A stretch of DNA of 64,000 bases from Candidatus Latescibacterota bacterium (GCA_965223905.1 CBDCXV010000011.1:1856001-1920000); one strand, 5' to 3'; positions 39,061 to 46,627 are shown, numbered from the stretch's first letter. Made by a program: numbers and translations. Notes: generated by a model from the sequence alone, not told the origin.

Positions 39061-39138
39061 TTGACCTCCTCCGGATGCGTCCGTACCCTGGGATATTACA
39101 TTTTTGTATCTTATTTTTTCGAATCGACGATTTTGTCG
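39061..39138 (+). promoter_or_regulatory. Promoter of the NifA-like gene with paired palindromic sites just downstream
   Basis: TTGACC-N17-TACCCT, then TTACA-TTTT-TGTAT (39096) and CGACG-ATTT-TGTCG (39125). Confidence 0.6.
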
Positions 39139-39183
39139 TCTCGTCAAAATCGCACCATCACCTCTACCAAAAGGTGGCCTGTC

Positions 39184-40725
39184 ATGCGAACCGCCCCGGC
39201 GCCGACGGACCGGCTCCAGATAGATGTCCTGCACGAGATCGGCGAGGTCCTCGGCTCCGGCTCCGAGCTGGAGAACTCGCTGCACCGCATCCTCAAGCTC
39301 CTCGGCGAGCGCCTGGAAATGGGGCTGGGCACCCTCACCCTGCCGCAGGGGGACCGCGAGGTCAGCATCGACATCGCCTACGGCCTTTCCCCGACCGAGA
39401 TCGAGCGCGGGCGCTACAAGATGGGAGAGGGGATCACCGGCAGGGTGATGCAGTCGGGCAAGGCGGTCATCGTTCCCCGCATCAGCAGCGAGCCCCTGTT
39501 CCTCGACCGCACCGGGGCCCGCACCAACACCGAGAAGTCGCAGACCTCGTTCATCTGCGTGCCGATCCTGCTGCAGCGGGAGGTGGTCGGCACGCTCAGC
39601 GTCGACACCCCCTACATCGACGACTCGCGGCTGGAGCAGAACGTCAGGCTGCTGGCGATCGTGTCGGCGATGGTGGCGCAGGCGGTGGCCGCCAGGCGGA
39701 CCGCGCGCCGCGAGCGCGCCAACCTCCTCGACGAGAACCTGCGCCTGCAGGGGGAGCTGAAGGAGCGCTTCCACCCCTCCAACATCATCGGCAACTCACG
39801 CCCGATGCAGGAGGTGGGTGACCTGATCGGCAAGGTCGCTCCCAGCGACGCCACCGTGCTGCTGCGCGGCGAGAGCGGCACCGGCAAGGAGCTGGTCGCC
39901 GACGCCGTCCACTACGCCAGCCTGCGCGCCGGCAAGCCGTTCGTGAAGGTGCACGTCGCCGCGCTCCCGGAATCCCTGGTGGAGAGCGAGCTGTTCGGCC
40001 ACGAGCGCGGGGCCTTCACCGGGGCCACCCGCACCAAGATCGGCCGCTTCGAGCGCGCCGAGGGTGGGACGATCTTCCTCGACGAAATCGGCGAGCTCAG
40101 CCCCGCAGTCCAGGTCAAGCTGCTGCGCGTGCTGCAGGCGCGCGAGGTCGAGCGTCTCGGGGGCAGCGAGCCGAGGCCGATCGACGTGCGCGTCGTCGCC
40201 GCGACCCACGTCGACCTCGAGCACGCGGTGAAGCGGGGGCGTTTCCGCGAGGACCTGTTCTACCGCCTCAACGTGTTCCCGATCTACGTGCCGCCGCTGC
40301 GGGAGCGGAAATCCGACATCCTCCTGCTCTCCGACGCCTTCCTCGAGAAGTACGCCCGCAAGCACTCCAAGGAGATGAAGCGGATCTCGACCCCGGCCAT
40401 CGACATGCTGATGAGCTACCACTGGCCCGGCAACGTCCGCGAGCTCGAGAACTGCATCGAACGCGCCGTCATCCTCAGCCTCGACGGCGTCGTTCACGGC
40501 CACCACCTGCCCCCCACCCTGCAGACCGCGGACGCCTCGGGCACCATGCTGTCCGGCTCCCTCGAGATGATGATGAGCTCCTACGAGCGCGAGATCCTCG
40601 TGGAGGCGATGAAGAACTCGAGGGGGAACATGGCCAAGGCGGCGCGCCTGCTCGGCACCACGGCGCGCATTTTCTCATACCGGTGCAAAAAGCTGGGAGT
40701 CGACTTTTCCCAGTACCGACCCTAG
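39184..40725 (+). CDS. NifA-like GAF-AAA+-HTH sigma54 activator
   Basis: GAF domain (GEGITGRV, SFICVPI), GESGTGKE, ESELFGHERGAFTGA, WPGNVRELEN and HTH. Confidence 0.92.
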   Translation: MRTAPAPTDRLQIDVLHEIGEVLGSGSELENSLHRILKLLGERLEMGLGTLTLPQGDREVSIDIAYGLSPTEIERGRYKMGEGITGRVMQSGKAVIVPRISSEPLFLDRTGARTNTEKSQTSFICVPILLQREVVGTLSVDTPYIDDSRLEQNVRLLAIVSAMVAQAVAARRTARRERANLLDENLRLQGELKERFHPSNIIGNSRPMQEVGDLIGKVAPSDATVLLRGESGTGKELVADAVHYASLRAGKPFVKVHVAALPESLVESELFGHERGAFTGATRTKIGRFERAEGGTIFLDEIGELSPAVQVKLLRVLQAREVERLGGSEPRPIDVRVVAATHVDLEHAVKRGRFREDLFYRLNVFPIYVPPLRERKSDILLLSDAFLEKYARKHSKEMKRISTPAIDMLMSYHWPGNVRELENCIERAVILSLDGVVHGHHLPPTLQTADASGTMLSGSLEMMMSSYEREILVEAMKNSRGNMAKAARLLGTTARIFSYRCKKLGVDFSQYRP

Positions 40726-40853
40726 CTGACCCCCTGCCGGTACCGTGGAACCCGGTCGCCAGGGCATCCTGGACTGCATCTTCGATGCGGCAGGTGTTTG
40801 CCGGGAGGACCGGCGGTGCGGAGGCCGTAACATAGGGCGACCTTCGATATTTT

Positions 40854-40897
40854 CTACATTTATGTCGTGTAAAAATCCGATAACGACATGATTGTTT
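40854..40897. promoter_or_regulatory. Paired upstream activator sites for amtB
   Basis: CTACA-TTTA-TGTCG (40854) and CGACA-TGAT-TGTTT (40884), 30 bp apart, about 95-140 bp upstream of the -24 box. Confidence 0.65.
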
Positions 40898-43944: not shown

Positions 43945-45441
43945 ATGGCAAAAGCCAAACCGAAAACCAAAGCTTCACCGAAGGCGAAAGCTTCACCGAA
44001 GGCGAAAGCCAAGGCGGCACCTGCCGCCACCGCTAGGTCGGTCGTCGCCAACGCCAAGGCGCAGGGCGTGCAGATGGTCGACTTCAAGTTCGTCGACTTC
44101 CCCGGCACCTGGCAGCACTTCTCGATTCCCGCCTCGACGCTGGAAGAGGATATGTTCAGCGAGGGCCTCGGATTCGATGGTTCCAGCATTCGCGGCTGGA
44201 AGTCGATCGACGAGAGCGACATGCTCGTCATGCCCGATCCGACCACCGCCTTCCGCGACCCCTTCTGCGAGGTCCCGACCCTGTCGATCATCTGCGACAT
44301 CGTCGACCCGATCACGCGCGAGGACTACGGCCGCGACCCCCGCAACGTCGCCAAGCGGGCCGAGGCCTTCCTGAAGTCCACCGGCCTCGCCGACACCGCG
44401 TACTTCGGGCCGGAAGCGGAGTTCTTCATCTTCGACAGCATCCAGTACGACCAGAACGCGCACTCCTCCTACCACTTCATCGACTCCGTCGAGGGGCGCT
44501 GGAACTCCGGCGCCGACGAGCAGCCGAACCTCGGGTACAAGCCGCCTTACAAGGGCGGATACTTCCCGGTACCCCCGCACGACACGCAGCAGGACCTGCG
44601 CTCGGAGATGGTGCTGACGATGATGGAGGCCGGCGTCGACGTCGAGGTCCACCACCACGAGGTCGGCACCGCCGGGCAGGGTGAGATCGACATCCGCTTC
44701 TGCCCGCTGGTCAGCTGCGGCGACCAGATGATGATCTACAAGTACGTCATCAAGAACGTCGCAAAAAAGCACGGCAAGACGGCGACCTTCATGCCCAAGC
44801 CGCTGTTCGAGGACAACGGCACCGGCATGCACACCCACCAGAGCCTGTGGAAGGGGGGCCGGCCGCTGTTCGCCGGCAACGGCTACGCCGGCCTCAGCGA
44901 GATGGCCCTGCACTACATCGGCGGCCTGCTCAAACACGCCCGCTCCATCCTCGCCTTCACCAACCCGACCACCAACTCGTACCGCCGCCTGGTTCCCGGG
45001 TACGAAGCGCCGGTGAACCTCGCCTACTCGCAGCGCAACCGCAGCGCCGCCTGCCGCATCCCGATGTACTCGGCCAGCCCCAAGGCCAAGCGGGTCGAGT
45101 TCCGCTGCCCGGATCCCAGCTGCAACCTGTACCTGGGGATGTCCGCCATGCTGATGGCCGGCCTCGACGGGGTGCTCAACAAGATCGACCCGGGCGACCC
45201 GATGGACACCGACATCTACGAGCTGTCGGCCGAGGAGCGCGCCTCGGTTCCGCTGACGCCGGCGTCGCTCGACGCGGCCATGGACGCCCTCGAGGCGGAT
45301 CACGACTACCTGCTCAAGGGAGACGTGTTCACCGAGGACGTGATCCAGGCCTGGATCGACTACAAGCGCGAAGAGGAGATCGACGCCATACGGCTGCGCC
45401 CGCACCCGTACGAGTTCGCCCTCTACTACGACATGGTGTAG
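43945..45441 (+). CDS. glnA: Glutamine synthetase type I
   Basis: FDGSSI, HHEV, TFMPKP, GMHTHQS and NRSAACRIP motifs; adenylylation-site-like DIYEL. Confidence 0.97.
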
Positions 45442-45498
45442 GTCTGCAAGGCGACTCTGCGGCCGGCGTCGAAGCAGGGCGCCGTCCACCTGGAAAGA

Positions 45499-45534
45499 AG
45501 GCAGGCCGTCCCGGCGACGGCCTGCCTCTTTTTT
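45499..45534 (+). terminator. Intrinsic terminator after glnA
   Basis: AGGCAGGCCGTC/GACGGCCTGCCT 12-bp stem with a T-run. Confidence 0.85.
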
Positions 45535-46627
45535 GCCTTGCCCGGGAGCCTCGTGCCGTGACCCCCGAACCCGGACCCCCTGCCGAGCGCCGCATTCCCT
45601 CGTGGCCGTGGAGCGCTGCGGCGGCGTCTCGAGACTGACCCGCTGCCGCTCCGTCGCCCCGCTCGAGCTGCTCAACCCGCGCGCCGCGGAAGGGTACTGC
45701 CCGGTGATCCTCTCCTCCTGCGGCGGCGGCCTGGTCGAGGGGGATGCCGTCGACCTCGAGGTGCGCTGCGGACCGCGGGCCGCCCTGTTCCTCGGCACCC
45801 AGGCCCTGGGCAAGGTGTACAGGTGCCCGGCGGGCAGCGGCTGCCGCCAGGAGCTGCGCGGCGCCGTCGCCGACGGCGCAACCGCGGTGGTCATGCCGGA
45901 TCCGGTGGTGCCATTCGCCGGCAGCATCTACCGCCAGCGCCAGCATTGGAGCCTGCAGGGGGACGCCGTGCTCCTGCTCGTGGACGGCCACACCGCCGGC
46001 AGGGTCCTGCGCGGCGAGCGCTTCGCCTACCGCGAGTACCGCTCGGACATCGACATCCTCGTCGACGGCAGCACCATCCTCCTGGAGCGCTATTGCTCGC
46101 GGCCCGACGAGCTGCCCCCCGACTCGGCCGGGGCCTTCGGCCGCGGCACCGCCCTCCTCAACGCCTGCGCCGTCGGCGGCGCCGACAGCCGCCGTTTCCG
46201 CTCCCTGACAGAACGGCTGGAAGAGAGCATCCCCCCTGCCGTTGCGGCCGGCCCCGCGGCGTCGAGGGAGGCCGGCTGTCTCGTAGCCCACTCGCGGCCG
46301 CGCGGGGAGGTCTGGGTGCTGCGGGCCCTGGCGGACCGGTGCGAATCCCTCGATCCCCTGCGCCGGCTCCTCGGGGAAGCGGCCGGCATCCTGCTCGGAG
46401 GCAACCCGGTCGAAAGGCTGCTCGGCCGGCCCCCCTCCTGCCTTGAACGACAATTATGTCCTTACGAGAATTTCCGGCTACAAAAATGTCGATCCACTTC
46501 ACCGACTGCCGTCCCCCCCGGTAGACTCGAGCCTCCGCCGAAAAAACCACCTCGGTTCCAACCCTATCCCCGACAAACAGTTGCGCCGGTTGCTCCTACC
46601 GCTTCCGGGAGCGGGTCCGCGGTCTGA
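45533..46627 (+). CDS. ureD: Urease accessory protein UreD (both ends uncertain)
   Basis: GGGLVEGD, TQALGKVY, PDPVVPFAGSIYRQ and TAGR...GERF motifs. The ORF runs into the next regulatory region, suggesting a 3' frameshift near 46430. Confidence 0.8.
   Translation: MPCPGASCRDPRTRTPCRAPHSLVAVERCGGVSRLTRCRSVAPLELLNPRAAEGYCPVILSSCGGGLVEGDAVDLEVRCGPRAALFLGTQALGKVYRCPAGSGCRQELRGAVADGATAVVMPDPVVPFAGSIYRQRQHWSLQGDAVLLLVDGHTAGRVLRGERFAYREYRSDIDILVDGSTILLERYCSRPDELPPDSAGAFGRGTALLNACAVGGADSRRFRSLTERLEESIPPAVAAGPAASREAGCLVAHSRPRGEVWVLRALADRCESLDPLRRLLGEAAGILLGGNPVERLLGRPPSCLERQLCPYENFRLQKCRSTSPTAVPPGRLEPPPKKPPRFQPYPRQTVAPVAPTASGSGSAV
46448..46491. promoter_or_regulatory. Paired upstream activator sites for the ABC/guanidinase/urease operon
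   Basis: CGACA-ATTA-TGTCC (46448) and CTACA-AAAA-TGTCG (46478), 30 bp apart. Confidence 0.65.

Follow-up and report, generated by a model that had tools for sequence, protein, structure and literature searches.

The locus and its paired palindromes

The DNA described here (the window) is a stretch of 64,000 nt from the 7.92 Mb genome of a Candidatus Latescibacterota bacterium (GCA_965223905.1, CBDCXV010000011.1:1856001-1920000; 11 contigs, 63-65% G+C; labelled G000). It carries the gene of a putative sigma-54-dependent activator, followed by genes such as amtB, glnK, glnA, and those for urease, and short palindromes with an AT-rich core occur in pairs at three promoters of this locus, that of the activator gene among them. 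The features needed to follow the argument are given below, with positions counted from the first letter of the window and the palindromes, being symmetrical, given without a strand; genes were assigned with Pfam and, for amtB to glnA, also with NCBIfam.

39061..39089, plus strand: predicted sigma-70-like promoter of the activator gene; -35 TTGACC (39061-39066), 17-nt spacer, -10 TACCCT (39084-39089)
39096..39109: putative operator site O1, TTACATTTTTGTAT; matrix score 21.2; position kept in orthologs
39125..39138: putative operator site O2, CGACGATTTTGTCG; starts 29 bp past O1; matrix score 18.0
39184..40725, plus strand: activator gene, 513 aa; GAF - AAA+ (sigma-54 interaction, GAFTGA) - AAA lid - HTH_8
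40854..40867: putative enhancer site A1, CTACATTTATGTCG; matrix score 20.9
40884..40897: putative enhancer site A2, CGACATGATTGTTT; starts 30 bp past A1; matrix score 15.4
40991..41006, plus strand: predicted amtB sigma-54 promoter with canonical -24/-12 elements, TGGCATTCGGTTTGCA; 76 bp 5' of the amtB start
41082-42488, plus strand: amtB
42519-42857, plus strand: glnK
43035-43712, plus strand: TorF/Gcw porin-like gene
43945-45441, plus strand: glnA
45533..46627, plus strand: reading frame of ureD; its UreD domain extends to about 46345
46448..46461: putative enhancer site U1, CGACAATTATGTCC; matrix score 19.6; kept in the related genomes G001 and G002
46478..46491: putative enhancer site U2, CTACAAAAATGTCG; starts 30 bp past U1; matrix score 20.0
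46625..46640, plus strand: sigma-54-like promoter of the SBP/urease genes, TGACCCCTGATTTGCA; -24 element defective, with GA for the near-invariant GG
46704-47708, plus strand: substrate-binding protein (SBP) gene, NMT1/SsuA-type; the top NCBIfam model, a putative urea ABC SBP, is below its cut-off

The AAA+ domain of the activator is a match to PF00158 (E 1.8e-70), and the translation shows a Walker A motif, GESGTGKE, together with the GAFTGA loop.

A sequence-only reading of the window had described the sites as six 14-mers of the form CGACA-N4-TGTCG, in pairs spaced at 29-30 bp. All six are present at the positions it gave, and the spacings measured are 29, 30, and 30 bp. The consensus itself proved too loose and partly wrong. 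Allowing up to 2 mismatches, its full form (CGACANNNNTGTCG) gave 80 matches in the window where 40 were expected, and almost every one fell in GC-rich coding DNA; its pair counts were governed by codon periodicity, and the site at 39096, which carries 4 mismatches, was missed. Being this unspecific, it was dropped as a search motif and an AT-cored motif was used instead. The conserved and specific core is ACA-(A/T)4-TGT (ACA-W4-TGT), with an outer CG that varies among relatives. This core occurs 10 times in the 7.92 Mb genome, and four of these ten occurrences are sites of the pairs described here; the two remaining sites of the six each depart from it by one base.

Rarity was also assessed with a 16-column matrix, made from 60 sites (30 pairs) in the genomes of relatives and with the window's own genome excluded. 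The spacing within these collected pairs was exactly 30 bp in 25 cases, 29 bp in three, and 32 bp in two. The six window sites score from 15.4 to 21.2, and a scan of the whole genome found only 24 positions at 16 or above. Pairs separated by 27-33 bp in which both members score at least 6 number 20 in the genome, and when both must reach 15, only the three window pairs are left. A separate scan for pairs upstream of 983 loose matches to the sigma-54 promoter returned the amtB promoter alone. Because neither scan gave anything further, the regulon in this genome appears to comprise three promoters only. A background-level frequency genome-wide, which the sequence-only reading had named as a reason to abandon its proposal, is not what was seen; the motif is rare.

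Position relative to promoters

Sites A1 and A2 had been placed upstream of a sigma-54 promoter of amtB, and this holds, with 107 bp from the start of A2 to the start of TGGCATTCGGTTTGCA. In relatives, the distance between the proximal site and the TGG of a TGGYAY-N5-YTGCW promoter is 104-107 bp at 13 of 16 loci, 101 bp at one, and 116 bp at two, corresponding to about 10 or 11 helical turns. The third pair lies 147 bp, or about 14 turns, from its promoter. The aligned promoter of G001 reads TGGCCC-N5-TTGCA, where the window has TGAC for the TGGC of G001, and the spacer in G002 is one base shorter, so that a canonical sigma-54 promoter is found at this place in one of the three genus members. 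The TGAC within 46625-46640 represents either a sequencing error or decay of the promoter. The genome encodes the sigma factor itself, with rpoN scoring 441.9 bits, above cut-off.

The third pair was said to precede an SBP-gdmH-urease cluster. It does lie 5' of the SBP gene, while the name gdmH was not confirmed. Both of its sites fall inside the 3' end of the ureD reading frame, which runs over them because a stop used in relatives is missing. In G001 and G002, ureD stops inside U1, through a TAA or TAG in the AT core; in the window the U1 core is ATTA, which offers no stop, and the frame continues for 58 codons across U1 and U2 to 46627.

At the activator gene, O1 starts 7 nt past the -10 TACCCT, which bears out the description of this pair as lying directly past the gene's own -10 (TTGACC-17-TACCCT). 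This promoter was absent from a consensus promoter scan because its -10 is weak. A TTGAC -35 box is found about 35 nt 5' of the first site in many orthologous upstream regions, and the pair would therefore span roughly +1 to +45 of a sigma-70-type promoter. As to the autorepression that had been proposed, the geometry of the pair recurs in orthologs, and from it repression itself may be inferred.

Conservation in the activator's family

Forty relatives were searched for orthologs of the activator (E <= 1e-100, 51-96% identity). All 24 genomes of the same family, representing 18 genera, have one, and the other 16, drawn from three further families of the class, yielded none. Under a strict pattern (AC[AG]-N4-[CT]GT, a core with at least 3 A/T, two copies 29-31 bp apart), 13 of 23 regions show a pair within 250 nt 5' of the activator gene, and 14 of 21 regions show one within 450 nt 3' of it, while the rest of the same loci, used as control DNA (82,600 nt), contained none. 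Conservation upstream of orthologs, a check the sequence-only reading had set for itself, is thus seen across 18 genera at the activator's own promoter, and over the same range the pair is also kept between the activator gene and the sigma-54 promoter.

The exact pattern ACAWWWWTGT-N19-21-ACAWWWWTGT was present at 27 places in 19 of 31 family genomes, and the same pattern written backwards was present at no place in these 31 genomes. It was also absent from all 16 genomes of the class that have no ortholog of the activator, a result that is weak on its own because 12 of the 16 belong to one genus. Sixteen of the 27 places are at the activator locus (two of them, in G042, assigned by contig neighbourhood only). 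Eleven are elsewhere, and nine of these lie beside amtB, amtB-glnK, a gene resembling glutamine synthetase (GS), a type III glutamine synthetase (GSIII), or ureD with a urtA-like SBP. The eleven include one at G017:C62, whose context was outside the survey of neighbours; the others are as follows.

G015 and G042: 3' of ureD and 5' of a UrtA-like binding protein with porin and permeases
G005: two pairs beside ureD, at a contig end
G012: 5' of amtB-glnK
G016: 5' of amtB
G043: 5' of a GS-like gene
G021: 5' of a type III glutamine synthetase
G000: the window's own ureD-SBP pair
G017:C54: no recognisable gene beside the pair

The ureD-SBP pair of the window is kept in the genomes of both other genus members.

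Homologous activators in other phyla

Twenty-seven loci of up to 9.5 kb, each with a full-length homolog at 41-56% identity, were sampled from other phyla (phylum names as labelled in the database). Eight of them carry a pair, always no more than 270 bp from the gene for the homologous GAF activator, and no pair lies elsewhere in these loci. The neighbouring genes are amtB-glnK (Verrucomicrobia, Treponema), GSIII and GltB (Desulfovibrionaceae), GSIII (a metagenome-assembled genome, or MAG, labelled Heliomicrobium), GlnD (Desulfobacterales), and NifH (Desulfofustis, Desulfobacteraceae). The pair-bearing homologs score 490-558 bits with the NCBIfam model for NifA, straddling its cut-off of 528.85, and some of them would receive an automatic NifA label despite adjoining amtB or GSIII.

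The same dyads stand beside nifH and a NifA-like activator in two Thermodesulfobacteriota MAGs (L051 3732-3877 and L048 3704-3810). At the first of these, a Desulfobacteraceae locus, the pair is 100 bp 5' of a sigma-54 promoter that fronts the activator gene, which may mean that autoregulation has opposite signs, positive there but negative in the window's family. The arrangement suggests positive autoregulation and control of nif genes through the same motif.

A quick tree of the homologs, with a midpoint root and with branch support from the approximate likelihood-ratio test of the Shimodaira-Hasegawa type (SH-aLRT) only, placed the closest named relative of the window's activator, from a Candidatus Latescibacterota MAG, inside the window's family. 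Pairs were present in both subclades, one being the window's family and the other a Desulfovibrio/Desulfomicrobium group, which also holds two Pseudomonadota NifA-like rows without pairs. The threshold for labelling a row of the tree (PAIR >= 26) is arbitrary, and since the matrix assumes a background of 64% GC, AT-rich loci (L030, L041) receive inflated labels.

Proposed mechanism

Judging from these comparisons, the GAF-AAA+-HTH protein encoded at 39184-40725, a sigma-54 activator, very probably binds the paired ACA-W4-TGT palindromes. What computation shows directly is that the sites exist, are rare and conserved, keep a fixed geometry, are linked to nitrogen genes, and co-occur with the activator clade. 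The suggestion that the motif is the enhancer of the adjacent NifA-like protein gains support from its conservation in the family, its co-occurrence with orthologs, and its nitrogen-gene neighbours.

Each palindrome of 14-16 bp would take one activator dimer via a Fis-type helix-turn-helix, and with two palindromes 30 bp (about three turns) apart, the two dimers would sit on the same side of the helix and seed the active AAA+ ring. The -24 element is about 105 bp away at amtB and 147 bp away at SBP-urease, a gap that the ring would bridge by DNA looping to reach sigma-54 RNA polymerase. Two promoters would be opened in this way, one for amtB-glnK-porin-glnA and one for the SBP/ABC-transporter/urease genes. 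At the activator's own sigma-70-type promoter, a pair of the same kind covering about +1 to +45 would serve as an operator that limits the level of the activator. Nitrogen status is presumably sensed by the GAF domain, with 2-oxoglutarate or the PII protein GlnK as possible signals. By analogy, the design is that of a classical enhancer-binding protein: dyads three turns apart, located whole turns from a sigma-54 promoter, and an apparent operator at the protein's own promoter.

Alternative explanations

The best-surviving alternative is that the pairs are enhancers bound by a second sigma-54 activator, a response regulator encoded at 34296-35654 next to a kinase gene (32584-34266), the two forming an NtrBC-like system, with the GAF protein acting elsewhere or jointly. 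Two dyads about three turns apart are the layout of NtrC enhancers too, and the response regulator combines REC, AAA+, and HTH_8 domains; its score with the NtrC model is 400.9 bits, short of the cut-off of 558.6. Its gene adjoins one for a PtsN-like EIIA, and 27 of 30 family genomes have an ortholog, in most cases 3-7 kb away from the GAF activator. In Desulfovibrio vulgaris, the amt-glnB operon is listed under both the response regulator DVU3220 (experimental) and DVU1949 (predicted) (PMC4641369). However, where the GAF and response-regulator genes are far apart, about 1 Mb in G019 and about 23 kb in G001, the pairs remain at the GAF gene. No site scoring at least 15 is near the kinase and response-regulator genes, and a receiver-domain activator occurs in none of the 27 other-phyla loci, within the locus DNA examined, yet eight of them carry pairs beside the GAF activator. 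Control by the response regulator is for these reasons unlikely.

A still less likely explanation, and one to which little credence is given, is that the palindromes are operators of an unrelated small transcription factor, a global repressor or activator for nitrogen that lacks an AAA+ domain, the true enhancer of the activator being another sequence. Short AT-cored palindromes are typical of many dimeric repressors, and the pair at the activator's own promoter is in a repressor-like position, but the fixed 104-107 bp to sigma-54 promoters is the geometry of an enhancer and not of an operator, and in phylum after phylum the pairs accompany the gene of the GAF activator. In the sequences inspected, no further conserved palindrome stood out in the interval separating that gene from the promoter, although no de novo motif search was run.

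That the matches are functionless chance products of AT-rich intergenic DNA is scarcely credible, since, for all the 80 window matches of the loose consensus and the weak pairs yielded by some AT-rich coding islands, the core is found only 10 times in 7.92 Mb with four of these here, the backwards pattern gave 0 places against 27 for the true one in 31 genomes, the 82.6 kb of control DNA from the same loci held no pair, and both the spacing and the promoter distance are conserved.

Several observations weigh against binding and control by the GAF activator as proposed above. Within the family, the two activators are inseparable by co-occurrence, because they are syntenic in most genomes (4 kb apart in the window). 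With the strict pattern, a pair is missing from 10 of the 23 regions upstream and from 7 of the 21 downstream, most of these misses having one degenerate member and still being detected by the matrix; L020, L026, and L027 are without a pair in one or both of the regions flanking the activator gene, and 19 of the 27 other-phyla loci show none. Activation of the third promoter may be weak or lost because GA replaces GG, and, with a weak -10 at the activator's own promoter, 'repression' is a reading of the geometry. Two further points concern DVU1949-like proteins: compared by eye, their recognition helix differs from that of the window's family although the motif core is the same, and the Desulfovibrio/Desulfomicrobium homologs fall into the other subclade, separated by branches with 99% SH-aLRT in the quick tree with its midpoint root.

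Relationship to NifA, NtrC, and DVU1949

The activator of the window shares the GAF-AAA+-HTH architecture of NifA, which is also its top NCBIfam model (TIGR01817, 512.2 bits) and includes its best solved relative (chain 9qq6_C, with residues 7-507 aligned); several pair-bearing homologs are above the NifA cut-off or beside nifH. However, 512.2 bits (487.2 in the genome search) is below the cut-off of 528.85, and because the match covers only profile positions 3-449 of 534, the C-terminal part differs from that of NifA. The upstream activator sequence of NifA is TGT-N10-ACA, whereas the window sites are ACA-N4-TGT, the apparent targets in the window are assimilation genes, and two Pseudomonadota NifA-like loci that were examined have no pairs. 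The best score in a nifH profile search of the genome was 26.2 bits, against a cut-off of 394.35, and none of the NifA, NtrC, and NifH profiles reached its cut-off there, which does not prove nifH absent because the genome is 93.6% complete.

NtrC has a phosphorylated receiver at its N-terminus and the window's activator a GAF domain, and the NtrC model (TIGR01818) covers the latter protein at positions 128-386 only, with 330.7 bits against 558.6. The NtrC box has the consensus TGCACC-N5-GGTGCA, also unlike the palindromes described here, and the contention that the motif is distinct from both the NifA and the NtrC boxes agrees with this comparison. The likeness to NtrC is one of layout, the enteric glnAp2 enhancer having two dyads about three helical turns apart and 100-150 bp 5' of a sigma-54 promoter, and NtrC also represses sigma-70 promoters that are overlapped by its sites. 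By the features tested, the window's activator is NifA-like, yet a member of neither NifA nor NtrC. The apparent regulon of the window has its counterpart in that of enteric NtrC, which comprises glnA, amtB, glnK, and urea genes (PMC5343134).

The closest precedent is DVU1949. Kazakov et al. (2015, BMC Genomics 16:919; PMC4641369) describe it as a single-component activator of 'nitrogen metabolism and transport', with a regulon predicted in Desulfovibrio vulgaris and other Desulfovibrionales by comparative genomics only. Like the window protein, it is a GAF activator with GAFTGA. Its motif was derived upstream of its own operon under the assumption of autoregulation, and its predicted sites are 16-bp palindromes with an ACA-(A/T)4-TGT core (for example TTGACGTTTATGTCAA and ATTACAAAATTGTAAT), often occurring in twos. 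The predicted targets (DVU1231-1233, DVU1258, DVU3392, its own operon, and others) include the amt-glnB operon and glnA genes. Homologs from Desulfovibrio/Desulfomicrobium MAGs, 43% identical to the window's activator, likewise have such sites 5' of their genes. There are also differences: the flanks of the DVU1949 sites are TTnACA...TGTnAA, those of the window's family mostly C-G/T-ACA; among the rows listed, neighbouring sites are 32, 41, 42, and 46 bp apart, against a fixed 30 bp here; and no conserved sigma-54 promoter was reported near DVU1949, whereas the gene of the window's activator is directly 5' of its target promoter (PMC4641369). The quick tree did not include DVU1949 itself.

The motif is thus less new than it first seemed, the same core having been predicted for DVU1949 in 2015. 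A literature search, whose coverage left out most subscription journals, found no further paper naming DVU1949 and no experimental work on the motif, and searches on Latescibacter with sigma-54 and urease, and on NifA-like proteins with amtB and glnA, returned nothing relevant within the same coverage. While the core was known before for a related regulator, the geometry is now well defined, and its wide phyletic spread is so far undescribed.

A broader scenario may be offered, tentatively and with the balance somewhat against it: one clade of NifA-like GAF activators, in Latescibacterota, Acidobacteriota, Verrucomicrobiota, Spirochaetota, and Thermodesulfobacteriota, could be a master regulator of nitrogen assimilation that replaces NtrBC. 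It would rely on a single enhancer layout of ancient origin, in which two ACA-W4-TGT dyads spaced at 30 bp stand whole turns, about 105 or 147 bp, from a sigma-54 promoter, and proteobacterial NifA with TGT-N10-ACA would be a specialised offshoot of this older regulator.

For a group known almost only from metagenomes, the locus provides a testable regulon of an activator, with sites, spacing, and promoter distances defined. It also indicates that proteins annotated automatically as NifA, or nearly so, may control the assimilation of ammonium, glutamine, and urea in a genome apparently without nitrogenase, an ambiguity of the label that matters wherever nitrogen fixation is deduced from annotations. 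With its rigid spacings of 30 bp and about 105 bp, the system neatly illustrates, in a natural setting, how the face of the helix constrains enhancer-dependent transcription.

Other genes and neighbouring features

The gene order amtB-glnK-porin-glnA (41082..45441) is also seen in relatives. The remaining features downstream, with genes assigned by Pfam and NCBIfam, are these.

45499..45527, plus strand: strong terminator-like hairpin past glnA, 12 pairs followed by a T run
48280-48936, plus strand: open reading frame (ORF) of the arginase/agmatinase family
49633-50514, plus strand: ABC permease
50523-51413, plus strand: ABC ATPase
51419-52186, plus strand: ureAB
52187-53812, plus strand: ureC
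55007-55756, plus strand: ureG

Two of these genes look incomplete. The arginase/agmatinase-family ORF, in the region 47765-48936, covers only profile positions 112-301 of 307, and ureC, at 52187-53812, only positions 3-463 of 569, the remainder not being found in frame in either case. Frameshifts are a possible cause of both gaps, arising from assembly errors or marking pseudogenes.

Directly upstream of the locus, 32584-37491 is occupied by a row of genes that encode a histidine kinase, a sigma-54 activator of the response-regulator type, an EIIA resembling PtsN (PTS-Ntr), and a sigma factor similar to RpoS/RpoD; together they could be a second nitrogen-related control module. Between this row and the activator gene there is a divergent sigma-70-like promoter on the minus strand (38990-39045; TTGACT, 17 nt, TATCGT) for a UVR-motif protein gene (38207-38965), and its -35 (TGTCAA as read on the plus strand) is kept in many orthologous regions.

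Look-alike sites elsewhere in the genome

Several candidates outside the locus were considered and rejected. The pairs at C2:34511 and C11:2015245 both fall within a 409-aa reading frame and are copies of a single duplicated AT-rich sequence. They belong to an AT-rich stretch of about 5 kb that occurs twice in the genome (C2:29500-39500, L002, and C11:2010000-2020000, L001) with 92.5% identity and a local G+C content of 45%, and adjoins a 1.9 kb part at 99% identity; it is the source of the false weak pair and probably a mobile or recently acquired island. The pair at C10:1540409 is a 28-bp tandem repeat, and that at C1:941812 a hairpin-like inverted repeat directly 5' of an AAA-ATPase gene. 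A single low-GC sequence was also noted in two copies of opposite orientation (C9:476445 and C10:44743), with dyads 32 bp apart that score 13.4 and 14.3.

Among single sites, that at C11:273327 is inside a gene for a thiamine pyrophosphate (TPP) enzyme. The top-scoring one outside the locus, C9:63563 (20.7), lies between the 3' ends of two convergent genes and is therefore no promoter site. The short spacer between these genes, C9:63540-63640 (L140 3040-3140), contains repeated CGAC..AATTGTAG and GCTAC words, and could be a small RNA or a repeat element.

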